A stretch of DNA of 47,735 nucleotides from Elainellaceae cyanobacterium (GTDB lineage Bacteria > Cyanobacteriota > Cyanobacteriia > CAZCXK01), in NCBI GenBank assembly GCA_051117555.1, contig JBNPEG010000154.1:1-47735 (forward strand), given 5' to 3'. Made by a program: the position numbers and the translations under genes. Each line of letters opens with the position of its first letter. The first letter of the stretch is position 1. Below are positions 2,966 through 47,735 of the stretch, piece after piece. The notes under the pieces are model-generated. The model was not told the DNA's origin. It did not search any database and worked only from the letters and a program-made list of their open reading frames with translations.

Positions 2966-4012
2966 ATGGCTGATTTAGAATCCAATCTCATTCGACTTTA
3001 TCTTCCGCTCGTTGCATGGGTTGGGTTAGGGGTCGTGCTAGGAATGAAGCTCCCGGTGCAGGTACCGTTCTATCTGGGTAAGTTTTTGTTTTGGATAGGC
3101 GTACCCATCAGCATTTTGACATTTTTGCGCCAAGCGGATTTATCGGAGTCAGTTTGGGTAGTTCCGGCGATCGCTTGGATTGCCATTCTGTTAGGGGCTA
3201 GTTTGGCATGGTCTTGGATGATGATCACGGGTAGGGTGAAGCGTTCATCTCATCTTTCTAGGCAGCGATCGCCCTCTCAGGATGGTATTGAAGATGCTGA
3301 GGATGCTAGCAGCGTTGCGGATGAGTCGTCCCATCATCTGACTCATTCCGCTCATAAACCCTGGAGCTTACCGACTCAGGGAAGTTTTATGCTCTCGGCC
3401 ATGATTGGCAATACGGGCTACTTGGGATATCCTGTCGTACTAACCCTGATGGGGCCTAAATTTTTCGGGTGGGCAATTTTTTATGATCTCTTAGGTAGCA
3501 CACTAGGGGCATACGGATTGGGCGTTATTCTTGCAGCTCGATTTGGAACCAGTTATCAAAACATGGGGCAGCTTTTTCAAGCCATCCTCATCAATCCAGC
3601 ATTCTGGAGCTTTTGGGCAGGGTTGGGGTTTCGTCAAGTGCCCCTACCGCAGCCCGTCGAGCGCGGTTTATTGGGCATTGCTTGGGCGATCGTAGCCGCA
3701 TCACTACTTCTGCTAGGGATGCGGCTTAGCCAAGTTTCATCGTGGCGAAATGCCCAAAAAGCAGCGATTAGCCTAAGCATCAAGATGCTCATCGTGCCAA
3801 TGGCGTTAGGACTATGCCTGCCAATCATCGGGATCACGGGCTCTGCGCGGCTGGTCGTGATTTTGCAAATGGCGATGCCTCCTGCCTTTGCCACTCTGGT
3901 TATTGCTGAAGCATACAATCTCGATCGAGGGCTCACCGTCACTGCTCTGGCGATTGGCTCAATCGGGATTTTAGCCACACTGCCCATCTGGCTATGGCTA
4001 TTTGGGACGTAA
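2966..4012 (+). CDS. AEC (auxin efflux carrier) family transporter
   Basis: GNTGYLGYP and QMAMPPAF motifs, about 10 TM segments; ATG at 2966 chosen. Confidence 0.88.
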   Translation: MADLESNLIRLYLPLVAWVGLGVVLGMKLPVQVPFYLGKFLFWIGVPISILTFLRQADLSESVWVVPAIAWIAILLGASLAWSWMMITGRVKRSSHLSRQRSPSQDGIEDAEDASSVADESSHHLTHSAHKPWSLPTQGSFMLSAMIGNTGYLGYPVVLTLMGPKFFGWAIFYDLLGSTLGAYGLGVILAARFGTSYQNMGQLFQAILINPAFWSFWAGLGFRQVPLPQPVERGLLGIAWAIVAASLLLLGMRLSQVSSWRNAQKAAISLSIKMLIVPMALGLCLPIIGITGSARLVVILQMAMPPAFATLVIAEAYNLDRGLTVTALAIGSIGILATLPIWLWLFGT

Positions 4013-4059
4013 CCCAACCTAGTCAATACCTTCCGCTTATACTTACAGCAGGTTATTAA

Positions 4060-4527
4060 CTAACCCACCCAATTCACATCTCCATCGGAGGAAGGAACAG
4101 ACGGCAATGGTTTGGAGATAGGTACCTCACGACGTTGCTGCTGTTGGCTTTCGGACTTTTGGGAAGAATTAGAGGCTTGCCTGGCAGCGCGTTGAGGCTG
4201 CGGAGGGGGGGGAGGGGGAACTGAGCGAGAGGGTGAAGCATTGTGGGCAGCATTCTGGGGTGTGGTATCCTTCGATCGCCGTTCCGGGACAACGACCTTC
4301 TTCATCAAGTATTCAGTGGTTTGCTGTTTAACCCACCCACGAGCGGCTAAAACTTCACCAAAGCGCATACCGGTGGCTTTCTGATCATTTAGGGCAACTT
4401 CAATCTGAGCCCGGGTGACCAAACCCGCCTCTTCTAAATATGCGCCAATTCGTTTGCGAGTGTTGTTTAATACTGTAGGCACGGTGTGAAATTGATAGCG
4501 ATCTATACTGTCTCGATACATACCCAA
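4060..4527 (-). CDS. Small protein with an MshEN-like (T2SSE_N) motif and a Pro/Ser/Gln-rich tail
   Basis: RIGAYLEEAGLVTRAQIEVALNDQ followed by RFGEVLAARGWV matches the tandem RLGxxLxxxG pattern; the true start may be GTG at 4482. Confidence 0.7.
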   Translation of the reverse strand: MGMYRDSIDRYQFHTVPTVLNNTRKRIGAYLEEAGLVTRAQIEVALNDQKATGMRFGEVLAARGWVKQQTTEYLMKKVVVPERRSKDTTPQNAAHNASPSRSVPPPPPPQPQRAARQASNSSQKSESQQQQRREVPISKPLPSVPSSDGDVNWVG

Positions 4528-4871: not shown

Positions 4872-5831
4872 GTGGTTAGCATGGCAGATTACAGATATTC
4901 AGACGAATCAAGAGAATTGCCCAATGACCCCTCTCAAGTCGCGCGGAGTCGGGCGTTGGTGCTCATTAATCCCCATGCACGGCAAGGGGGAAAAAACGTC
5001 TCAGAGGCGATCGCCTATCTTAGGTCATTTGGGTTAGATCTAATTCAGCCGTCTATCGATCAGTCCCAAGATTTTTCCCAGCTCATTTGCGACTATCGCG
5101 ATCAGGTTGATCTTGTGATCGTCGGTGGCGGAGACGGCACCCTAAATTCTGCGGTCGAAGGGCTAATCGATACTCAGCTTCCGCTCGGCATTTTGCCGCT
5201 GGGGACGGCGAATGATCTGACCCGAACGCTGGGAATTCCGACATCATTGTTTGATGCCTGTGAGGCGATCGCCACTGGAACTCCTCACCGCATTGATCTC
5301 GGATGGGTAAACGGCAAACATTTCTTTAACGTGGCGAGCGTTGGGCTGAGCGTCAAGATTACCCAGCAGCTCTCTAGAGAAGCCAAGCGACGCTGGGGAG
5401 TTTTAGCCTATGCAACGACTGCATTTCAGGTAATTGTTAAGAATCGCCCCTTCAGGGCTGAAATTCGCCTTCCAGGTCAATCGTTTCGCATCCGCACGGT
5501 TCAAATTGCTGTGGGCAACGGTCGTTACTACGGAGGCGGCATGACCGTTGCCCATGACGCCACCATCGACGATCAGCGCCTCGATCTATATAGCCTTGAG
5601 ATTGAGCATTGGTGGCAGTTCATCACGCTCATCCCCGCACTCTGGATTGGGCGTTTTCATGAATGGCTGGGAGTGCGGACGCTCGAAGCTCAAGAGATTG
5701 AAATTCATACCCGTAGCCCTCATCTGGTGAATACTGACGGGGAGATCACGACCCAGACGCCTGCTCACTTTCGATTAGTGCCGCATGCGATCGCAGTTAT
5801 TGTTCCTCGAAATAAAAGCGATAATTGGTAA
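4872..5831 (+). CDS. YegS/DAGK family lipid kinase
   Basis: INPHAR, GGGDGT, LPLGTANDL, NGRYYGGG and DGE motifs. Confidence 0.92.
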   Translation: MVSMADYRYSDESRELPNDPSQVARSRALVLINPHARQGGKNVSEAIAYLRSFGLDLIQPSIDQSQDFSQLICDYRDQVDLVIVGGGDGTLNSAVEGLIDTQLPLGILPLGTANDLTRTLGIPTSLFDACEAIATGTPHRIDLGWVNGKHFFNVASVGLSVKITQQLSREAKRRWGVLAYATTAFQVIVKNRPFRAEIRLPGQSFRIRTVQIAVGNGRYYGGGMTVAHDATIDDQRLDLYSLEIEHWWQFITLIPALWIGRFHEWLGVRTLEAQEIEIHTRSPHLVNTDGEITTQTPAHFRLVPHAIAVIVPRNKSDNW

Positions 5832-5907
5832 GACTTGTTGGCAAATAGGGCGATCGCCTCCACTCTCTGCTTCCTCCTCTCTCTACCCAATTCGGTGCAA
5901 CTCACCT

Positions 5908-7998
5908 ATGGAACAACTCATGCAGGTCTTTTCGGGCAGTCCTAGCCCGATCGTTGCGTTTACGATTCTGCTGCTGGTGATTCTGATTGTTCCGCCTTTT
6001 TTTGAACGCCTAAGATTACCTGGGTTGGTCGGTCTTCTATTTGCAGGGGTCGTCTTGGGATCAGACGGCTTAGGACTATTAAGTGCCGAATCTGAAACGA
6101 CAAAACTGCTTTCGGACATTGGCAAAATTTATCTCATGTTTGTCGCCGGACTTGAAGTTGACTTAGGAGAATTTCGCAAAACTCGTACGCGTTCGTTAGG
6201 ATTTGGCTCGGCAACGTTTTTGGTGCCTCTGATTGTAGGCACCCTGATCGGATTGCACTTTGAGTTTGGCTGGAATGCATCCGTCCTGATTGGCTCTCTG
6301 CTGGCATCTCATACCCTGTTGAGCTACCCCATCATTCAACGCTTGGGTGTGGTTCGCAATGAGGCCGTTACGGTCACAATTGGGGCGACGATTTTTACGG
6401 ATATTGCTGCGCTGCTGGTCTTAGCTATTTGCGTATCCATTCAGGATGGTGAGTTCTCGATTGCGAGTTTGACCGTTCAGCTATTGGCTCTTGTGATATA
6501 TTCGTTCGTGGTCTTGGTTGGCTTTGACTGGGCAGGAAAAGAATATTTTCGGCGCACGAGTGAAGAAGAGAGCAATCAGTTTTTGTTTGTGCTTCTTGCG
6601 GTTTTTCTGGCCGCTGTCGGTGCTCAAGTCATTAATGTCGATAAAATCGTCGGTGCATTTCTTGCCGGTCTTGCGGTAAATGATGTGGTAGGGCATGGCC
6701 CCGTTAAAGAGAAAGTAGAATTTGTGGGCAGTACGCTCTTCATTCCGTTTTTCTTTGTGGGTACTGGGTTGCTTTTAGATGTGCCTGCATTTGTACAAAG
6801 TCTAACGACGGAATTTGACCTCACCTTCGCCATTGTCATTGGTTTATTTGTTAGCAAGTTTCTTGCAGCGCTCATTGCCAAGGTTATGTTTCGCTACAGT
6901 TCAGCAGAGTTGTTCACCATGTGGTCACTCTCCTTGCCACAGGTCGCTGCGACATTGGCTGCCGCATTGGCGGGGCTGGAAGCCGGATTGTTGAGCGAGT
7001 CAGTATTCAACAGCGTCATTGTGCTAATGTTAGCCACCTCATTATTAGGCCCCCTGATTACCGAACGGTTTGCGGTAGGCTTATCAGTTCCTAAACCCAA
7101 CTTAGACGTGGTCGCTCATGACGATTGGTGGATTGGTGAAGACGATGGGTCTGGCGATCTCTCAGAACCAGAGGGCGGTCATCCGTTTACGGTTTTAGTG
7201 CCCATTTATAATCCGCTCACTCAGCGGTATCTGATTGAGATGGCCTCTCTCTTGGCGAGACATGAATCTGGAATCATCGTGCCGCTTTCGATCGCCAAAG
7301 CTCAAGTGCATCCGGACGAACCCCAGCTTAATGGACTGCTCCGACAGAGCCAACGGTTGCTTCAGAGGGCTTCGGATATTAGTCGAGAATTTGATATCCG
7401 AGCAGAACCCCGAATTCGAATCGATGACGATATTTCCAATGGCATTAGCCGCACGGCTCGCGAAGTCTATGCCAATCTCATTGTCATGGGATGGAGTGAA
7501 ACTACTGGATTGAAGGCGAGGCTATTTGGCAATTTAATTGACAGCGTGTTTTGGGCCTCTCACTGCCCGGTTGCGGTTGCCCGACTTTTAGACGACCCGA
7601 TTAACCTGCATCGCATTTTGGTGCCCGTTAAAATTATCACGCCGCAAACAATCCGGACGATTCGGTTTGCCCAATTTTTTGTGGATACCAATCAAGCGTC
7701 TCTGACCCTGCTTCATGTGTGCGATCGCCGTACACCCGCCGAGCAAATCAAAGACTTCGAAGCAGAGCTCGCTCAGCTCTTTGCGCAATCTGTCTCCCCC
7801 AACAATTTCACAATCAAAACCATTCGCCACGATGATGTTGCAAACGTGATTCTAGATGTCTCAAAGGAATTTGACATGGTAATCTTGCGATCAATGCGTC
7901 GACGCACTGCCGGAGGTTTAGCGGTCAGCGATGTAACGACTCAGGTGATTCGATCACTAACGGGATCAATGATTCTATTTGGCGAACCCCATTCGTAG
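5908..7998 (+). CDS. Cation:proton antiporter (CPA2) with C-terminal universal stress protein domains
   Basis: About 12 TM segments with ATIFTD and GAFLAG, followed by two USP-like domains (VLVPI...LIVMGW...CPVAV; ILVPV). Confidence 0.88.
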   Translation: MEQLMQVFSGSPSPIVAFTILLLVILIVPPFFERLRLPGLVGLLFAGVVLGSDGLGLLSAESETTKLLSDIGKIYLMFVAGLEVDLGEFRKTRTRSLGFGSATFLVPLIVGTLIGLHFEFGWNASVLIGSLLASHTLLSYPIIQRLGVVRNEAVTVTIGATIFTDIAALLVLAICVSIQDGEFSIASLTVQLLALVIYSFVVLVGFDWAGKEYFRRTSEEESNQFLFVLLAVFLAAVGAQVINVDKIVGAFLAGLAVNDVVGHGPVKEKVEFVGSTLFIPFFFVGTGLLLDVPAFVQSLTTEFDLTFAIVIGLFVSKFLAALIAKVMFRYSSAELFTMWSLSLPQVAATLAAALAGLEAGLLSESVFNSVIVLMLATSLLGPLITERFAVGLSVPKPNLDVVAHDDWWIGEDDGSGDLSEPEGGHPFTVLVPIYNPLTQRYLIEMASLLARHESGIIVPLSIAKAQVHPDEPQLNGLLRQSQRLLQRASDISREFDIRAEPRIRIDDDISNGISRTAREVYANLIVMGWSETTGLKARLFGNLIDSVFWASHCPVAVARLLDDPINLHRILVPVKIITPQTIRTIRFAQFFVDTNQASLTLLHVCDRRTPAEQIKDFEAELAQLFAQSVSPNNFTIKTIRHDDVANVILDVSKEFDMVILRSMRRRTAGGLAVSDVTTQVIRSLTGSMILFGEPHS

Positions 7999-39555: not shown

Positions 39556-40515
39556 ATGCCTATGGTTCGTGTTAGAGCACCAGACCTTCCTCAGACTGGC
39601 TCTTGGTTGAATTGTGATCAATCTGTATCGTTGAAAGATCTGCGGGGATACGTCGTTATTCTCGATTTTTGGACGTATAGCTGTATTAACTGCCTGCACG
39701 TTATTCCGGATGTCAGGTATTTAGAACACAAGTATGGCGATCGCCTGGTTGTCATCGGCATTCACACCGCCAAATTTGACCATGAGCACACTCTAGAGAG
39801 TGTTCGGCAGGCAATTGCCCGGCATGGAATTATGCATCCCGATGGTGGCAGAGCACTCGATGTTGATCTAAATTCCCCGTGGGATTTGGTAATAGTAGAT
39901 GCAATGATTTATGTCGCAATGGCAGGAGCGCATCAAATCTGGGCAATTGACCGTGACGGCACGAGTCAAACATTGATTGGCACAGGAGCAGAATTTTGCG
40001 TTAATGGAACACGTGATACTGCTGCATTTGCTCAACCAAGCGGGACTACTACTGATGGAGATGACCTGTTTGTAGTAGATAGTGAAACAAGTTCAGTTCG
40101 CCGAATTAAACGAGGAGAAAGTCCGACTGCTCACACGGTCTGCGGCAGTGGTCAGCTATTTGAGTTTGGCGATCGCGATGGGATTGGATCACATGTGCGC
40201 TTACAACACTGCTTGGGACTGGCCTATGGGGCAGGTTACCTGTGGCTTGCCGATACCTACAACCACAAAATTAAACGAGTGCATCCGGTAACGGGAGACT
40301 GCCAGACTCTATGCGGGATGAGCAAAGCAGGCTTTCGAGACGGCATCGGTCTAGATGCTGCTTTTTCAGAACCCTCTGGATTAAGCTACGCCGACCATCA
40401 TCTGTATGTTGCAGATACCAATAATCATGCCATTCGAATGATTGATCTTGATACGTTGAAGGTGACAACGCTGCACAGTCCGACCCTGTGTTCACCCTAT
40501 GTCTGCCAGCCTTGA
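39556..40515 (+). pseudogene. Thioredoxin-like + NHL-repeat protein with an apparent in-frame internal deletion
   Basis: DFWTYSCINC thioredoxin start; the domain stops at IMHP and jumps directly to LNSPWDL NHL blades. Confidence 0.65.
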
Positions 40516-40572
40516 GCGATTAGTGCCTCTGCAATCTACCCCTCTACTCTACTTTTCTCTCTCTTGCGCGAA

Positions 40573-40718
40573 GCGGCAATTGAAATTGCGTCTACACGAA
40601 CGAAACCCGCCTGCGCGGGTTAAGGAAATTGTCTGTGAGGATGGACATAGTCTATGTAGCCGCCGATTTTAATCGGACGGCACAAGCGAATGTTCTGGGT
40701 CTGATGGCGATCGCCCCA
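40573..40718 (+). repeat. 146-bp direct repeat, left copy
   Basis: Identical to 45265-45410; contains the hairpin AACCCGC...GCGGGTT and ends just after a HIP1 site. Confidence 0.95.
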
Positions 40719-40957
40719 AATATTACCCTCGATCACGGTTGCACTCCTTGTGAACCTAGATCCTTCATCCCCAACGCAAGATAGGAATGTGAGAACACAA
40801 TAAAATAGTATCGCGGTTTTAACCGCCAGCATTCAGAGTCTGGTCAGACAGGGGATATGCACAGGTTAAGGATATCTAAATTTTTTTTGGACTGGACAAC
40901 AATTTAGGAGTTCTTGATTTACCCTGGGGTAAAGAAATTAGTGAACCCAAGAGTTTT

Positions 40958-41293
40958 ATGTCAGACGAATATATTTGGATTGTGACCGATGACGCTGAAC
41001 CTTCTGATATCGAAGGTCAGCGGGGCTGGGGAGAGGAGGTTCGCAAGCGGCTGAATACGGCAGTGCAAGTTCCAGTTTCTCTGCTAGAGCAAAACATGAA
41101 CCGCTTTTTGCAGTTTGTCGGGCGACTGTTTAAGCAGGTTGATCAGCAAATCGGTGCTGATTCAGATATGCAACTAGATGAGGTGGAATTGTCGGTCGAA
41201 ATTAGCGGCAAGGGTGAAATTAAGCTGATTGCTGGTGCAGAAGGGAAAGGAGCGATTACTCTAAAGTTTAAGCGTATCGAAACGTCAGCGTAG
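40958..41293 (+). CDS. Pepco-like (peptidase co-occurring) small protein
   Basis: LDEVELSVEISGKGEIKLI...GAITLKFKR pattern; stop codon is 3 bp before the caspase gene. Family assignment is from recall. Confidence 0.7.
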   Translation: MSDEYIWIVTDDAEPSDIEGQRGWGEEVRKRLNTAVQVPVSLLEQNMNRFLQFVGRLFKQVDQQIGADSDMQLDEVELSVEISGKGEIKLIAGAEGKGAITLKFKRIETSA

Positions 41294-41296
41294 GAA

Positions 41297-43264
41297 ATGG
41301 CACAAAACTGGGCGATCGCCATCGGCATTAATCAATATGAGCATCTTTCGCAGTCGTCACATCTAAGATATGCCGTGCGTGATGCAGAGCTGATGCGTGA
41401 TTTTTTGTGTCAGACTGCTAGCTTTCCTGAGAAGAATGTGTTGTTGTGTTCTGATGAGTCTCGCCCTATCGGGTCTATTTTCACCCGCCCGTCACGGTCA
41501 AATTTAAGGCGGTTATTGCGCGAAGAACTGCAGCAGGCGCACGGAGCTGACAATCTTTGGTTCTTCTTTGCCGGACATGGCATGGCAGGACGAAATGGCG
41601 ATTACTTCTTGCCGATAGATGGCAATCCCAATGATTTGGAAGATACGGCTGTTTCTGTCGATTTTGTGACCGAGTATTTGCGCCGCTGTCAGGCCAAAAA
41701 TGTGGTGCTGATTCTTGATATGTGTCGCAATGAAGGTAGAAATGATAGTCGAGATATCAGCGTTAGTGTAGGTAAGCAAACCATCAAATTGGCCCGCGAG
41801 CGGGGCATGATTACGATGTTTTCCTGTAGCCGAGGGGAGCGATCGTATGAGATTCCTGAGCTAGAGCAAGGGGCGTTTACCCACAGCTTGGTAAATGGGC
41901 TAAAGCAGCACACGATTTTGCGACAGCTCGATGACTATTTGAGGCGAGAGATTCCAGGCTTACGGCAACGCTATGCCAAACAAATCCCGATTCCGCGAAT
42001 TATTCCTGAACCGGGATGGAAATATGATGCGCCTCTGCTGCCTGGATATGCTACCCAATCAGACGTAGGGCAGTTGATTGAGCGAGCAACCCAAGCAGAA
42101 CTCGACGAAGACTTTGAACAAGCCCGTCAGTTTTGGTGGCAGGTGATTGATGCAGGGTCTCAGTCTGAGCGGTCAACAGCCCGGAATGCACTAGATCGAA
42201 TTAGAAGGAAGGAGATGGCGAGGATTCAATCCGTGCCGTCTGCATCGCCACCACCATCAGTTTCTCCTGTCGGAAGGGATATAGGCGAAACCATATCGCC
42301 ACCCAATCCCCAACCTGAAGAAAAAACTACCAACCCAACAGCAACAGACCCGTTTCGTTTGCAAGATTTTCCTTTTAAGACTGCACGAATTGTATCTGTG
42401 CGCAAAGAGGGAGGATTGCTGGGTTTTGGTGGGCAAGCGGTGTGTGACATAAAGCGAGAAGGCTGCACTGCTAAATGCTTTGTTGAGCCGTTGGGCAATG
42501 GTGTCACGCTAGAGATGGTGCAGATTCCAGGAGGCACATTCATGATGGGGTCTCCTGAATCTGAAGATGGATATAAAAGTGAACGACCTCAGCATTCAGT
42601 AACGGTCAAACCATTTTTCATAGGTAAGTTTCCTATTACACAAGCACAGTATGAAGCAGTGATGGGAAACAATCCTGTGACGCAATATGATAGTGACCGC
42701 TTTGTTGCGCCTGATAAGCCCGTCGTTGGCGTGAGTTGGAATGATGCGATCGCCTTTTGTGAACGCCTGTCTCAACAAACTAAAACCGAGTATCGTTTGC
42801 CGAGCGAAGCCGAATGGGAATATGCCTGTCGTGCTGGAAATGAAACGCCGTTTCATTTTGGTGAAACAATCACGACTGACCTAGCAAATTATCGAGGAAC
42901 GGATTGGGAATATCAGGGGACAACGTATCCTGGCAATTATGCAAATGGGCCGAAAGGAGAATATCGAGAAGAGCCAACGCCAGTCGGTAGTTTTGCTGCT
43001 AATGCGTTTGGGCTGTTTGATATGCATGGCAATGTGTGGGAATGGTGCCTTGATCATTGGCATGAAAATTATCAAGATGCACCCACAGATGGAAATGCTT
43101 GGATCGAAGGCGGAGATAAGTCTCTGAGGCTGCTGCGGGGCGGTTCTTGGCCCTACGACCCGTGGGACTGTCGCTCAGCGGACCGTGTCAGGCTCAATGC
43201 AGACTTTAGGAGCGACGACTTCGGGTTTCGTGTTGTGTGTTCTGTGCCGAGGTCTCTTCCCTAG
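41297..43264 (+). CDS. DGR target protein: caspase (peptidase C14) domain, Pro-rich linker and FGE-sulfatase/CLec domain with C-terminal VR
   Basis: AIAIGINQY, FFFAGHG and LILDMCRN (His-Cys dyad); then IPGGTFMMGS, RLPSEAEWEYACRAG, GLFDMHGNVWEW and RGGSW...GFRVV. Confidence 0.95.
   Translation: MAQNWAIAIGINQYEHLSQSSHLRYAVRDAELMRDFLCQTASFPEKNVLLCSDESRPIGSIFTRPSRSNLRRLLREELQQAHGADNLWFFFAGHGMAGRNGDYFLPIDGNPNDLEDTAVSVDFVTEYLRRCQAKNVVLILDMCRNEGRNDSRDISVSVGKQTIKLARERGMITMFSCSRGERSYEIPELEQGAFTHSLVNGLKQHTILRQLDDYLRREIPGLRQRYAKQIPIPRIIPEPGWKYDAPLLPGYATQSDVGQLIERATQAELDEDFEQARQFWWQVIDAGSQSERSTARNALDRIRRKEMARIQSVPSASPPPSVSPVGRDIGETISPPNPQPEEKTTNPTATDPFRLQDFPFKTARIVSVRKEGGLLGFGGQAVCDIKREGCTAKCFVEPLGNGVTLEMVQIPGGTFMMGSPESEDGYKSERPQHSVTVKPFFIGKFPITQAQYEAVMGNNPVTQYDSDRFVAPDKPVVGVSWNDAIAFCERLSQQTKTEYRLPSEAEWEYACRAGNETPFHFGETITTDLANYRGTDWEYQGTTYPGNYANGPKGEYREEPTPVGSFAANAFGLFDMHGNVWEWCLDHWHENYQDAPTDGNAWIEGGDKSLRLLRGGSWPYDPWDCRSADRVRLNADFRSDDFGFRVVCSVPRSLP
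43129..43251 (+). repeat. DGR variable region (VR)
   Basis: Aligns without gaps to 44934-45056 with 18 mismatches, every one opposite a TR adenine. Confidence 0.97.
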
Positions 43265-43333
43265 CCCTTTTCTCTTTTGCTCTTTTACTCTTTACCCTTC
43301 TTTTCTCTTGCGCGTAGCGCTAAAAATTTTTTT
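43265..43333 (+). promoter_or_regulatory. Post-VR pyrimidine tract and GCGC-GTA-GCGC mini-hairpin, candidate retrohoming cis element
   Basis: C/T-rich tract, then CTCTTGCGCGTAGCGCTAAAAATTTTTTT. DGR targets typically have a hairpin downstream of the VR. Confidence 0.55.
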
Positions 43334-43451
43334 GCCTTTAAGAGACATAACGTAACGGTTTGCTTTGATCAGGCTCAAAATGTTCAGTCGCGATGAGATA
43401 TTGGTTCTTATATCCGTTCAACACCAAATCATCTAAAAACATCATTACGTT

Positions 43452-43796
43452 ATGGACGATTTACCTGTTATCCAGAAAACCTATGACCTGATCAAGTGGT
43501 ACGTCCCCATTCTCAACCGATTGCCCAAAAACCACAAGTTTTTGTTAGGCGACAGAATGGTGACCGGGCTCTATGATTTGCTCGAAGGGTTGATTCAAGC
43601 TCGCTATTCTCAAAACAAACTGACTCGACTAGAAACCCTCAACAGCCACCTTGATATCTTACGCCATCAAACTCGCCTGCTTCTCGATTTTGAATTAATA
43701 AAACCAGAGCGATATCAGCACATTGGGCAACTCATAGACTCCGTTGGCACTGATTTGGGGGGCTGGATTAAACAACAGCGTAAAAAACCATATTAA
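43452..43796 (+). CDS. avd: DGR accessory variability determinant Avd
   Basis: 114-aa helical protein ([13 protein letters not shown]...[12 protein letters not shown]...LGGWIK) lying between target and RT. Confidence 0.92.
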
Positions 43797-43817
43797 ACAA
43801 CAGCGTAAAAAACCATC

Positions 43818-44876
43818 ATGAAACGCTACGGCAATCTCTGGCCTCAAATCATCGACTTTGAGAATATCTTACTTGCTGCTCGCAACGCTCAAAAAGGTAA
43901 ACGGTTTCGAGACAATGTGCTGGCCTTCAACTACAACCTGGAACATGAACTCAACCAGATTCAACGCCTCCTCCAAACCAAAACCTATCAGCCCGGAGCT
44001 TACCGCACCTTTCAAATTCGAGAACCCAAACCTCGCACAATTTCAGCGGCTCCCTATCGAGATCGAGTAGTGCATCACGCCCTCTGCAACGTGATCATGC
44101 CTATCTTGGAGCGTTCTCTAATTTTCGATACTTATGCAAACCGTTGGGGCTTTGGCACCCACCGCGCCCTTCATCGCTTTACACAATTTGCTCGGTCTAG
44201 TCGATATATTCTTCAGTGCGACATTCGTAAATACTTTCCCAGCATTGATCATGAGATCTTGAAAACCCTGCTACGTTGCAAGATTAAATGCCTGGATACT
44301 CTCTGGCTGATTGACACGATCATCGACAACAGCAACGAACAAGAACCTGTCATTGTTCACTTTCCAGAGGATGAATTACTCACACCACTACAACGCCGCC
44401 GAGGGCTTCCCATTGGCAATCTCACCAGTCAATGCTTTGCCAATATCTATCTCAGCAACTTTGATCACTTCATCAAAGAACAACTCAAGGTCAGCAAATA
44501 TCTACGCTATGTCGATGACTTTGCGCTATTTTCTGACGACCGCATGTTTCTTACTGAAGCAAAAGCCATAATTGAAAACTACTTGGTAGACTTACGTCTC
44601 AAGATTCACCCCGTCAAAAGCCAGCTTTATAAAACAGAAATCGGTGCTAACTTCGTAGGATTTCGCGTGTTTCCAAACCATATTCGAGTTCGAAGTGAGA
44701 ATTTACGACGATCTCGACGACGATTGCGACGATTGAAACATGAGTACAAAATCAATCAGGTTAGCTTTACAACACTGACCCAATCGATCCAGAGCTGGGG
44801 GACACACCTCAAACATGCAGATAGCTGGCGTCTACGCGACGATATTTTTACAACCTTGATTTTTACGAATGCATAA
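43818..44876 (+). CDS. DGR reverse transcriptase
   Basis: [33 protein letters not shown] (DGR-type GxxxSQ) and YVDD; 352 aa with no maturase or endonuclease extension. Confidence 0.96.
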
Positions 44877-44933
44877 CTTTTGCTCTTAATTGGCTATTCT
44901 TCAGCTATTCTTTCGATTGGGACAGGTTGATCT

Positions 44934-45201
44934 GCTGCTGCGGGGCGGTTCTTGGAACAACAACCCGAGGAACTGTCGCTCAGCGAACCGTAACAGGAAC
45001 AATGCAGACAATAGGAACAACAACAACGGGTTTCGTGTTGTGTGTTCTGTGCCGAGTACTCTTCGCCGTCAGAGCTGATGGATGGGAATTCATCAGGAGT
45101 ACATGAAGAGTCCAGACCTGTTCCTGTGAGGGCAGTAACGCCTTCCGAAAATAAACCAGAGCCAGATATCTTGGTAAGTTCGCTGAAGAGTTGTCTGGCT
45201 C
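44934..45201 (+). ncRNA. DGR template repeat (TR, 44934-45056) and structured 3' spacer
   Basis: AAC-rich copy of the VR; downstream stems CTGATG...CATCAG, GAGGGC...GCCTTC and GAGCCAGA...TCTGGCTC. RNA ends are not known. Confidence 0.9.
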
Positions 45202-45264
45202 CATTAAAATATTCCTTATATTCCATCAAAAGCTCAGATCCCAGACTTTTTGATGAAAAAGCCG

Positions 45265-45410
45265 GCGGCAATTGAAATTGCGTCTACACGAACGAAACCC
45301 GCCTGCGCGGGTTAAGGAAATTGTCTGTGAGGATGGACATAGTCTATGTAGCCGCCGATTTTAATCGGACGGCACAAGCGAATGTTCTGGGTCTGATGGC
45401 GATCGCCCCA
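45265..45410 (+). repeat. 146-bp direct repeat, right copy
   Basis: Identical to 40573-40718. Confidence 0.95.
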
Positions 45411-45416
45411 CGTCGA

Positions 45417-45731
45417 ATAGTCATCATTCACGATCCGATGGCAATCATTCACCACCCGATAGTCATCATTCAATGTCTGATAGTCATCATTCAATGTCTG
45501 ATAGTGAATGTTCAATGTCTGATAATGAATGTTCAATGTCTGATAATGAATGTTCAATATCTGATAATGAATGTTCAATATCTGATAATGAATGTTCAAT
45601 GTCTAATGGTGAATGTTCAATGTCTGATAATGAATGTTCAATGTCTGATGGTGAACGTTCAATGTCTAATAGTGAATGTTCAATGTCTGATGGTGAACGT
45701 TCACTATCGGATAGCGATCGTTCACTATCCG
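45417..45731. repeat. 21-bp tandem repeat, 15 units, degenerate at both edges
   Basis: Consensus ATA(A/G)TGAATGTTCAATGTCTG; no unique spacers. Confidence 0.95.
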
Positions 45732-46039
45732 ATGGCCATCATTTCATATTCGAGTAAGAAAATCTTATATTGCGCATGGATTGATCACCATCCAATATCA
45801 AATTTCCACCACCGGATATCAAATGAAGTCGGTCGAATATAAAACCGAGACCAACGAGATTAGAAAATTTAATATCGCCAGGCAAACATTTCAATTCGTT
45901 TGGCAAATCAAGACCAACGGATATGAAATCAAAACCAGCTCACATCAGTTTTCTTAATTCCGGGATGCAACTTGCGCGATCGGCGGATGGAGTGATGGGG
46001 TAATCAAATCATCTCCATCACTCCCAGACTCCATTACTT

Positions 46040-46324
46040 CTAAACGGGCGATCGCCAACGAATCAGATAACTCATCACGTCACCTTGTTCGGGTGTGATG
46101 ATGATGCCCGTTTCAGGTACGTGAAGTAATGGACTCCACAATCGCTGCTCCACATAGCCCAGCACATGTAGATGATGAATAGTGCTTTGCACACCGTTGG
46201 TAGAACCGAGCAGAATATGCCGCAAGGGTTCTCGCTCAGGTTGAGCAGTAGGAGAGACGAGCAATAGCGGACTGTTCGCCTCACCATCAAGGGTAGGCGA
46301 TGAAGTATTAGGTAAGTATGTCAC
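46040..46324 (-). CDS. Conserved cyanobacterial hypothetical protein
   Basis: REPLRHILLGS..GVQSTIHHLHVLGY.E...WSPL pattern; start uncertain (GTG 46324 or TTG 46366). Confidence 0.7.
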   Translation of the reverse strand: MTYLPNTSSPTLDGEANSPLLLVSPTAQPEREPLRHILLGSTNGVQSTIHHLHVLGYVEQRLWSPLLHVPETGIIITPEQGDVMSYLIRWRSPV

Positions 46325-47005
46325 TGGGATTCCTCTGAGAGTGAGTAGGGTAAGGAATCCCAACAACTTGGCCGTCCCAGACGGTGTACAGTGCGAGACG
46401 GCCTAGAATAAATCTAGCCTTCGCGACTGGGTATTGCAGTCGTGGGGGTTAGGTGCCGGAATTGTTGCCAGCAATTTCCGGTACCGCCTGACCAAGTTCT
46501 TGGGAAAACAAGCTGCGGACAAAACAGCTATAGCTCAAAACGCTACCGAATTTGACGAACCAAGTCAAGTCAAATTTGATACTAATTTTGGATGAGATGA
46601 TTAGATGAGCACAGTGCAACTGTTGTGAATGATGCACTCGCGTTTCACAATTTCTTAATGGCAAATGTTGGTGGAAGGTGGATAGGATGAGGGGCGATTA
46701 GGTGACAATCCCCCAATCTCTAGAATTAACCATCAGATATGCCGGATAAAACCTTGAAACTGAGGAATTATCTAGCAAAGTTTCTGTATAGTTCCTGAAA
46801 GACTGGATATTATCCGGTAGATGTGCTGTATAACTGCGGAGATAGAGGATATTGTCCAGCGGATCTGACGTTGAATATATAGTTAGGCGGCTCAAGGCTA
46901 CCTGTGGGGATGTTGTTTCAATGTTCTTGCAGTGCCAAAAGACAATTCCTTCGTCTGACATACAATTGAGTAGAGTCTATTTGCCCTCTGCTCTGCCAAA
47001 CCTTC

Positions 47006-47614
47006 ATGAATGCTGATGTCACCTCAAAATCAATCTTGCTGCTGGCTGCGAACCCCAAGGGGACGGGAAGCTTGCGTCTGCAAGAAGAAGAGAGAGAAAT
47101 TAAGGAGCGTCTCCGTCTAGCTGGGTATGGCAAAGTACCGATCAACTCGACTGGGGCTACTCGTAGCAGAGATATTCAACAAGCGATGCTGGACTTTAAG
47201 CCACAGGTCGTTCATTTCACAGGTCATGGTATAGGGAAAGATGGTTTGGCTTTTGAGGATGTGGCAGGACATCTTAAGCTGATTGACTCAGATGCGTTAG
47301 CTAACCTATTCAAACTTTTTTCTAATCATGTAGAGTGCGTTGTTCTGAATGCCTTCTACTCAGAGTTTCAAGCTGAGGCGATCGAGCAACATATTGATTA
47401 CGTGATTGGGATGAATCAAGCGATTGGCGATCGGGCAGCAATTGAATTTTCTGTCGGTTTCTACACGGCATTAGGGGCTGGAGAATCAATCGAGTTTGCT
47501 TATGAACTGGGTTGTAATGCAATCCAGCTAGAGGGTATTCCGGAACACTTAACTCCAGTCCTGTTCGTAAAAAAAAAGGAATCTGAAAACGTAGAGTTTC
47601 AAAATTTTGATAGA
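47006..47614 (+). pseudogene. CHAT (caspase-clan) domain gene truncated by IS insertion; catalytic Cys replaced by Phe
   Basis: ILLLAANP...LRLQEE.REI, VHFTGHG, and VLNAFYS where LNACxS is expected. The last residues LISCTW* come from the IS terminus. Confidence 0.8.
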
Positions 47615-47735
47615 CTCATATCTTGCACCTGGTAATTTGAACTTCAATTCCCTGCTGTTGCAACAAGGAACGTTTTCGTTCGATATCGGCTAACAACAGT
47701 GTCACTAAAACATCTGCCAAAGCGGCTTCTAGCAC
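47615..47735 (-). mobile_element. Right end of the same IS family: transposase C-terminus and 16-bp terminal IR
   Basis: CTCATATCTTGCACCT at 47615-47630; the minus frame reads VLEAALADVLVTLLLADIERKRSLLQQQGIEVQITRCKI* with the stop inside the IR. Confidence 0.85.

Follow-up and report, generated by a model that had tools for sequence, protein, structure and literature searches.

Is the region at positions 41297-45201 of contig JBNPEG010000154.1, from an Elainellaceae cyanobacterium (assembly GCA_051117555.1), a complete and recently active diversity-generating retroelement (DGR), and what does the protein that it diversifies do? The window that we analyzed is this entire 47.7-kb contig (47,735 nt; C116 below), part of a 6.06-Mb assembly of 256 contigs, and its features lie on the forward strand unless stated otherwise. 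We assign a probability of about 0.9 to the reading that the region is a complete chromosomal DGR, belonging to the lineage characteristic of filamentous (multicellular) cyanobacteria and arranged in the order Pepco gene, target gene with its variable repeat (VR), avd, reverse transcriptase (RT) gene, template repeat (TR) and structured 3' RNA. ORF and domain annotation confirmed the target-avd-RT-TR order given in a preliminary description of this DNA. Mutagenic retrohoming of the type known from Bordetella phage BPP-1, which that description proposed, was also supported, with each named component present and an exact adenine-only signature. The element is real, intact and well preserved, yet ordinary, and as a DGR it is nothing new in kind; DGRs are known in cyanobacteria, as the description had rightly stated (PMC7517822, PMC10907252, PMC5758913).

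The TR (44934-45056) was present as a single copy in the assembly, and the VR (43129-43251) made up the final 41 complete codons of the target's lectin-fold domain. Their computed alignment was exactly the one described previously, 123 bp without gaps and with 18 mismatches, all of them at TR adenines. The manual count of 33 adenines in the TR agreed with the computed one, 15 of them being unchanged, and no mismatch was found at the 90 non-A positions. Under a hypergeometric model with 33 adenines in 123 positions, the probability that all 18 mismatches coincide with adenines was 5.9e-13. In the frame of the target, the differences altered 13 codons, the number claimed before, and were distributed over the first (12), second (6) and third (0) codon positions. 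Non-A differences appeared just outside the aligned block, from 43252/45057 on the 3' side, where an edge of the initiation of mutagenic homing (IMH/IMH*) type had been proposed, and at 43125-43128 directly on the 5' side.

The codon composition of the TR was likewise as described: 13 AAY, 3 AGG and 1 GAC codons, in which A-to-N substitutions cannot yield a stop. Further adenines occurred in TCA and GCA (silent third positions) and in an AGT codon at the 3' edge. The earlier figure of 15^13 sequences from the AAY codons equals 1.9e15, and all A-bearing TR codons together allow 8.4e17 protein variants. Mutagenesis would randomize the AAY, AGG and GAC codons without ever producing a stop, and would diversify the putative ligand-binding face of the FGE/C-type-lectin-fold domain. 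The preliminary description had also raised the matter of remote VRs for this TR. The assembly was searched in full for them by blastn and by an A-tolerant scan that permitted at most 12 non-A mismatches in 123 nt; the known VR was recovered, and no remote one was found.

The RT gene (43818-44876) encodes a protein of 352 aa with a Pfam RVT_1 domain, in whose translation the motifs LPIGNLTSQ and YVDD could be read. The palm motif (I/L/V)GxxxSQ defines the DGR RT clade. The best match in the Protein Data Bank (PDB) was 8ub7_A (E 5.7e-47), a chain that carries the sequence of BPP-1 Brt, as opposed to an E value of 3e-15 for the best group II RT, and the RT was 33% identical to the phage gene (E 3e-55). 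Clustering with group II intron or retron RTs, which the preliminary description had considered, was thus not observed, as judged by sequence similarity to Brt. The avd gene (43452-43796, 114 aa) matched NCBIfam NF033474 (DivGenRetAVD) with 137.1 bits against a cut-off of 80, and Pfam bAvd (PF22296) with an E value of 1.5e-20. The avd/RT junction carried a 25-nt tandem duplication (43767-43816; two identical copies) that left both ORFs intact. The distance from the avd stop to the RT start was 21 nt here, as opposed to the closest relative (L006), in which the avd stop overlaps the RT start.

For comparison, we scanned one genome per species and found 395 places that encode a relative of the RT, mostly in filamentous cyanobacteria, and examined the best 80 of these loci. 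These 80 showed 64 to 84% identity and belonged nearly all to filamentous cyanobacteria, with a few in Thiotrichaceae/Thiomargarita. Avd adjoined the RT in 78 of them, and a 3' RNA element followed the TR directly in 75, the other five being cut by a contig end or having a truncated RT. At least one VR was found nearby in 50 of 61 loci, and 53 of the 65 VRs were free of non-A mismatches in the 100-nt block compared. As a side observation, the TR of one of the loci was followed, about 800 nt downstream, by another copy (L009, 5860-6156) that is truncated at its 5' end and has a post-TR element of its own.

The RNA that flanks the TR in the window was structured over about 290 nt, from just upstream of the TR to 45201. 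A bracket duplex is formed in the minimum free energy (MFE) fold by a 5' strand at 44919-44928, upstream of the TR, and a 3' strand at 45115-45124, and is the counterpart of the 'cPRT Stop' duplex of BPP-1. Within it, 45058-45064 pairs with 45105-45111, joined by the pair G45056:C45113, in a duplex of the template:primer type that was supported by RNAalifold and by pair counts in 61 sequences. We infer that TR/VR homology stops at 45056 because this primer duplex starts there. The primer duplex encloses a GGGA-capped hairpin of 9 bp (45075-45096), of the Avd-binding stem-loop type, and is followed by an adenosine at 45114 that was invariant in 61 of 61 copies. Past the bracket, the consensus fold showed a stem-loop of 6 bp (45128-45145) and then a single-stranded A-rich stretch (45146-45158), after which comes a long interrupted stem-loop (45159-45201), the counterpart of the bRT-binding stem, with compensatory changes in 12 of the 12 pairs of its helix (helix 6).

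Covariation supported this structure throughout. RNAalifold on the 61 copies gave 40 consensus pairs, 32 of which had compensatory changes. Paired cells amounted to 96.6%, compared to 29 to 45% after sliding the partners by 1 to 3 columns, and none of 500 shuffles reached the observed values. The bracket duplex lay at a constant distance in most of the 61 loci, its outer pair covaried (A:U, C:G, U:A), and its mean score was 8.27, as opposed to 7.2-7.4 when the partners were swapped and 6.2-6.4 when the upstream sequence was shuffled. The MFE fold of the locus itself reproduced every helix (z = -3.72). No Rfam family covered the TR-flanking RNA; sub-threshold matches to CRISPR-DR28 and miRNA families lay in repeats, and we took them as chance.

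The layout of this RNA matched, element by element, that of the BPP-1 ribonucleoprotein in the accessible part of Handa et al. (bioRxiv 10.1101/2023.10.23.563531), namely the Avd-binding stem-loop, the TR:Sp duplex, the 'cPRT Stop', a small stem-loop with adenosines, the single-stranded 'Thumb Ring' and the bRT-binding stem; no sequence homology is claimed. The priming adenosine is Sp56 in the BPP-1 RNA as reported there, and its counterpart here would, by layout, be +58. By this correspondence, the template RNA appears to have everything needed for cis-primed reverse transcription. The loop of the Avd hairpin differs, being of the GNRA type in the cyanobacterial element and UNCG in BPP-1. Avd-binding stems of 9 bp capped by GNRA loops and conserved Stop duplexes have already been reported for Cyanobacteriota DGRs in the part of the same preprint available to us, and the RNA structure found here is therefore a confirmation and not a discovery.

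The two elements can also be compared as a whole. With the BPP-1 DGR (mtd-avd-TR-brt; PDB 8ub7 series), the locus shares the A-specific flow from TR to VR, a Brt-type RT, an accessory protein of the Avd family, a VR at the 3' end of a gene for a lectin-fold protein and an IMH/IMH*-type boundary. However, the BPP-1 element is phage-borne and ordered target-avd-TR-RT, whereas the present one is chromosomal and ordered target-avd-RT-TR. The target is a tail-fibre protein in BPP-1 and an FGE/TvpA-type C-type-lectin (CLec) fold fused to a caspase here. No difference of kind was found from the published DGR lineage of cyanobacteria and other multicellular bacteria (Wu 2018 Lineage 4, PMC5758913; PMC7517822; Doré 2024 clade 5, PMC10907252; Nostoc punctiforme, PMC12691664), with which the locus shares the gene order, Avd, FGE targets in caspase, TIR, NACHT, kinase and vWA contexts, and the occurrence of several DGR loci per genome. 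We apply the Lineage 4/clade 5 label to the RT provisionally and by similarity only. Within the lineage, the Pepco-caspase-FGE target is a minority form, found at 7 of the 80 loci.

By analogy with the BPP-1 prototype, for which the mechanism has been established, the element would work as follows. A transcript of about 44919-45201 would fold so that its upstream strand pairs with its downstream strand and the TR is looped out. The 9-bp GNRA hairpin would bind the Avd pentamer and the long 3' stem the RT. The duplex between the 3' edge of the TR (ACUCUUC) and GAAGAGU about 50 nt downstream would position A45114 as a cis primer of the cDNA. The RT would copy the TR, misincorporating opposite adenines, and the resulting cDNA would replace the VR at 43129-43251. 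The constant ends that TR and VR share would guide homing, probably together with the VR-specific 3' flank and its IMH-like edge, tract and hairpin.

In this flank, an IMH-like boundary and a periodic pyrimidine-rich tract of YCTYTT-type units (43252-43309) contain the stop codon of the target (43262-43264). They are followed at 43310-43334 by a GC hairpin with a 4-bp stem and a 3-nt loop (43310-43320) and then A5T7; this could be either the counterpart of the GC inverted repeat after the IMH or a terminator. Across the lineage, VRs but not TRs were followed by the same series of features: an edge resembling the IMH, then about 50 nt of periodic pyrimidine tract and often a GC hairpin. In the 65 VR flanks, which came from 50 of the 61 loci, the first 60 nt after the VR were on average 76% pyrimidine, and 34 of them had a strong perfect GC hairpin with a 3-4-nt loop, mostly 46 to 72 nt past the VR, compared to 0 to 5 in 20 shuffles. 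The hairpin in the window lies about 58 nt past the VR behind the pyrimidine tract, as opposed to 4-34 bp in phage DGRs according to the accessible part of PMC3240598, and GC inverted repeats after the IMH occur in only 34% of DGRs in the portion of Wu et al. 2018 that was available (PMC5758913). An HMM built from the flanks of other genomes matched this genome at three sites, all of them VR flanks (C180, C116 and C81). The pyrimidine tract was not found described in the available portions of Wu 2018, Guo 2011, Vallota-Eastman 2020 and Doré 2024, nor by full-text search. We suggest it as a candidate for a target-site recognition signal or a local DNA-structure element. The CTCTT repeats after the VR were also considered as a mimic of the primer-binding heptamer of the TR, and this was rejected on inspection, the repeats being unchanged where the primer duplex had changed (C81 and L041).

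The target gene (41297-43264) encodes a protein of 655 aa with a caspase-like Peptidase_C14 domain (aa 4-231), a linker and an FGE-sulfatase/C-type-lectin-fold domain (aa 406-647), the two Pfam matches having E values of 2.2e-21 and 4.2e-62, respectively. The NCBIfam model caspase_w_EACC1 also matched, below its cut-off. The caspase domain retained a His (..AGHG..) and a Cys (..LDMCR..) in the translation, which we take to be the catalytic dyad. In the PDB, the target matched Treponema denticola TvpA (2y3c), a DGR variable protein of solved structure, with an E value of 4e-20. An AlphaFold2 model of the FGE domain built from 62 natural sequences reached a pLDDT of 86.1, and Foldseek matched this model to PvdO, true FGEs and Treponema TvpA (TMq 0.75, rmsd 4.0); a first model from a 6-sequence alignment (pLDDT 52.7) was discarded. 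TvpA and the target thus share sequence and an FGE-type CLec fold, with the VR likewise at the C terminus. However, TvpA is a surface lipoprotein, whereas the target has an N-terminal caspase domain and showed no obvious N-terminal signal sequence when its translation was read by eye.

The target gene is preceded, 4 nt upstream, by a Pepco gene (40958-41293, 111 aa; Pfam PF24393, E 1.7e-30 and 106 bits, the cut-off being 27). According to the accessible portion of a 2025 preprint (PMC12642450), Pepco is a β-barrel that becomes a lethal membrane pore once a partner protease removes its C-terminal tail; there, experiments on an Avs4 system showed it to be a death effector licensed by a protease, and FGE is listed among the protease-fused sensors. 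The locus shares with the SsPepco-SsAvs4 module of that preprint, as far as the available text goes, a small Pepco gene directly upstream of a sensor-fused protease. The protease of the SsAvs4 type is trypsin-like, whereas that of the target is caspase-like (a cysteine protease), and the conserved-isoleucine rule is reported in the same part for serine-protease partners. The sensor of the present locus is DGR-diversified, whereas the accessible text mentions diversification for EACC1 modules and not for Pepco. In the two Pepco copies of the genome, in the window and on contig C180, a conserved LKFKR precedes a short variable C-terminal tail, which suggests a putative cleavage site at a basic residue. 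The pair of a Pepco gene beside a caspase-FGE gene recurs on C180, as it does at the minority of related loci mentioned above.

Given the fusion of the lectin-fold domain to a caspase-like protease and the Pepco gene just upstream, the target is likely a hypervariable cytoplasmic sensor wired to cell suicide through the caspase and a pore toxin. The sensor would bind a ligand derived from an invader and thereby activate its protease, and the activated caspase would clip Pepco to give an active membrane pore and the death of the infected cell. Paralogous VR-bearing genes in the genome stand in TIR, NACHT-HEAT and MoxR/VMAP contexts, which form part of the set of conflict systems given by Kaur et al. 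2020 (PMC7159879) and Doré et al. 2024 (PMC10907252). The best-surviving alternative accepts the DGR and holds that its target is a regulatory or housekeeping protease, acting in cell differentiation or homeostasis, and not an anti-invader sensor. Vallota-Eastman et al., in the part available to us, read cyanobacterial DGR targets, orthocaspase-CLec proteins included, as tuning regulatory pathways (PMC7517822); the accessible portion of PMC12691664 knows of no defence phenotype for any cyanobacterial DGR target, and the neighboring genes in the window (oligopeptidase B, an NHL/thioredoxin protein and CbiC) look housekeeping-like. However, the target is directly preceded by a member of the Pepco family, for which a role as death effector was shown in the Avs4 system, and the VR-bearing paralogs sit in contexts of conflict systems. 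We therefore consider a regulatory role unlikely, although it deserves to be kept in mind, and favor the sensor linked to cell suicide.

The genome contains further DGR components. A tblastn search over the assembly found only two RT+avd pairs, on C116 and C8, and no third RT in any contig, whereas a profile search found exactly four copies of the 3' RNA element. The second complete DGR, on C8 (L002, 2544-7999), has avd at 5354-5707, the RT at 5677-6768 and the TR at 6788-6910, in a VMAP/MoxR-AAA context. Three VRs matched its TR, two that flank it and a remote one on C177; their 18, 12 and 14 differences from it were confined to adenines. The remote VR (L005; 27833-27955 in C177 coordinates) lies in a gene with an in-frame TAG where its paralogs have Trp, and this target may be a pseudogene or an assembly error.

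Contig C81 carries a cassette that lacks an RT (L001, which is C81 44000-52000). On the minus strand of L001, it has a TIR-FGE target gene at 3114-4445, a TR at about 2769-2887 and a 3' RNA at 2613-2784, the target gene being followed within about 220 nt by the TR and 3' RNA; there is no avd or RT, and a 100-N gap and an array of repeats of 110 bp adjoin the cassette downstream. The VR of the cassette differed from its own TR at 14 adenines and one other base. The C81 RNA keeps all helices, and its primer duplex is preserved through compensatory changes. Compared with the RNA of the window, its Stop strand was identical at 13 of 13 positions and its RT-binding stem at 43 of 43, as opposed to 28 of 43 for the stem of C8. 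An avd-RT pair hidden in the 100-N gap was thought unlikely, the gap lying inside the 110-bp repeat array and the assembly having no third RT; an assembly-collapsed copy is possible.

Two further contigs hold partial loci. On the minus strand of C89 (L004, 182-2999), the VR-like end of a NACHT-HEAT-FGE gene passes immediately into the 3' RNA element, without an intervening TR. The gene has a 71% identical ortholog in L051, within a complete target-avd-RT-TR locus, and C89 is probably the scar of a recombination between VR and TR that deleted the avd, RT and TR of a third DGR. A similar scar was also seen in L088, from the closed genome of a relative without a DGR RT. C180 (L003, 446-2754, minus strand), a 3-kb contig, carries the second Pepco and caspase-FGE pair (42% identical), with a strong VR-type 3' flank. 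A reverse scan of the whole assembly found no TR able to template the VR-like ends of C180 or C89.

The C81 cassette raises the question of service in trans, which we surveyed in 41 genomes (the host and 40 relatives) with a threshold of E <= 1e-40 for the DGR RT. The RNA element was present in 12 of the 41 genomes and a DGR RT in 7. Two RT-less cassettes were found in genomes with RTs elsewhere: a target-TR-3' RNA cassette with a caspase-FGE target (G014:C49; 0 non-A and 10 A differences) and one with a kinase-FGE target (G003:C43; 1 non-A and 14 A differences). Among genomes without an RT, a closed one (G012) had only a scar, and another (G017) had a TR that had lost adenines, with no VR nearby. 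In this tiny sample, the RT-less cassettes fit service in trans. Doré et al. 2024 describe, in the part available to us, RT-less loci with arrays of MITEs (miniature transposable elements with inverted repeats) and probable trans activity in Thiohalocapsa (PMC10907252). In Thiohalocapsa sp. PB-PSB1, as given there, each class has a complete locus besides RT-less loci with MITE-like arrays where the RT would be expected, and C81 is similar, its array consisting of the same 110-146-bp repeat that flanks the module in the window. However, the RT-less VRs of PB-PSB1 match, by the same account, the TR of the complete locus, whereas the C81 cassette has its own TR, so that only the proteins would act in trans. 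That the RT and Avd of the window serve two template RNAs, their own and that of C81, is a tentative proposal for which we would give slightly less than even odds. A general rule, by which an RT-less cassette would have the same RT-binding stem as the resident complete DGR, was not replicated, since the stems differ in G014 and G003, and the 43/43 identity of C81 may therefore be the result of recent recombination.

Recent activity of the element in the window is a reasonable inference, because there are no non-A differences and all ORFs and all RNA helices are intact. A comparison of VRs drew on metagenome contigs of relatives, the best sequencing run sharing 0.12 of the sampled words with the host. 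In a 13.8-kb contig from a microbial mat (run X1), about 92% identical over the locus, 16 of the VR differences listed (at least 19) were at TR-adenine positions. A second, shorter contig from a relative showed the same tendency. These contigs lend weak support to diversification since the lineages split, which is not the same as present activity. Expression of the TR RNA and low-level A-mutagenesis have been shown in Nostoc punctiforme in the accessible portion of PMC12691664.

The element might instead be structurally intact and recently silenced, its clean signature having merely not yet drifted. The 25-nt duplication at the avd/RT junction, the lack of direct evidence of activity in the host and the decay of DGR loci in the host and its relatives (the C89 scar compared with the complete L051, the scar in a closed RT-less genome and the degenerate TR elsewhere) are in line with this. 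In addition, the RT-less cassettes are near-clean, so that a clean signature can outlast the neighboring RT. However, all three ORFs and every RNA helix are intact, there are no differences at the 90 non-A positions, and the VR of the related metagenome contig is mutated differently at the same adenine positions. We consider silencing improbable, and recent activity the more reasonable reading.

The remaining alternative, an RT of the group II intron, retron or defence type beside a TR and VR that are an ordinary diverged duplication of the 3' end of the gene, is effectively refuted, since the Brt chain is the best PDB match by 30 orders of magnitude, IGNLTSQ is present, avd is adjacent, no intron or retron RNA reached threshold and all 18 mismatches are at adenines (P 5.9e-13). 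In its favor, the best NCBIfam RT model was group_II_RT_mat, far below its cut-off (119.8 against 300, with retron_St85_RT at 63.9 against 235), no DGR-RT family was among the NCBIfam matches of the RT, and some phage homologues were labelled 'retron-type' by their depositors. No Rfam intron or retron family was found at gathering score in 40000-47735, the sole group II match (20.3 bits against a gathering score of 34, E 0.61) lying within the target gene.

Several points weigh against a complete, working element with the proposed role. Two genomes of the same genus, 61% and 99% complete, lack both the RT and the RNA element, so that the element is not a stable trait of the lineage. The evidence on activity comes from the contigs of relatives, none of it directly from the host organism. 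The 25-nt duplication parts the avd stop from the RT start and may reduce translational coupling. Avd showed no pairwise similarity to BPP-1 bAvd, its assignment coming from profile matches only. The hairpin in the VR flank of the locus, with its stem of just 4 bp, is below the threshold used for strong hairpins and weaker than in most relatives. Finally, it is from homology and position that we propose the putative pathway from sensor to caspase to Pepco, the adenosine used for priming and the part played by the VR flank.

The module is flanked by two MITE-like direct repeats of 146 bp (40573-40718 on the left and 45265-45410 on the right), which are 100% identical. This repeat family gave just 14 BLAST hits in the genome, over 4 contigs, and 7 of them form an array that adjoins the RT-less TR on C81. 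The segment just left of the upstream repeat (about 40535-40572) looks like the 3' flank of a VR in having both a pyrimidine tract and a GC hairpin, and is 85% identical to the C180 flank. The flanking repeats and this segment hint at repeat-mediated rearrangement or mobility of DGR modules. Just past the right 146-bp repeat, about 45411-45720 is an array of tandem repeats of about 21 nt, whose Rfam matches were to miRNA families only and sub-threshold. A minus-strand ORF that overlaps the TR (44894-45271) had no family match and was taken as spurious. A scan for promoter and terminator consensus sequences gave fewer sites than in shuffles and nothing useful. Close to the contig end, an ORF at 47006-47635 encodes a CHAT (caspase-like) domain. 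The final 133 bp (47603-47735) are a dispersed repeat found at 12 places in 11 contigs, which probably caused the assembly break.

The RT lineage, the lectin-fold targets, their fusions with caspase, TIR and NACHT domains and the idea of hypervariable antigen sensors are already in print. The value of the present locus is that of a compact example, in which sensor, protease and executioner (Pepco) are encoded by two adjacent genes beside the mutator. It is a convenient three-gene test bed for the idea of cell suicide triggered by DGR-diversified sensors. In addition, four life stages of DGRs occur together in the genome, namely complete loci, an RT-less cassette, a deletion scar and an orphan VR, and these make a concrete and testable case for the service of a foreign template in trans. 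If such service is true, DGR templates would be portable plug-in modules, and one set of enzymes would program several unrelated sensors; the VR-specific pyrimidine tract may be part of the same logic.

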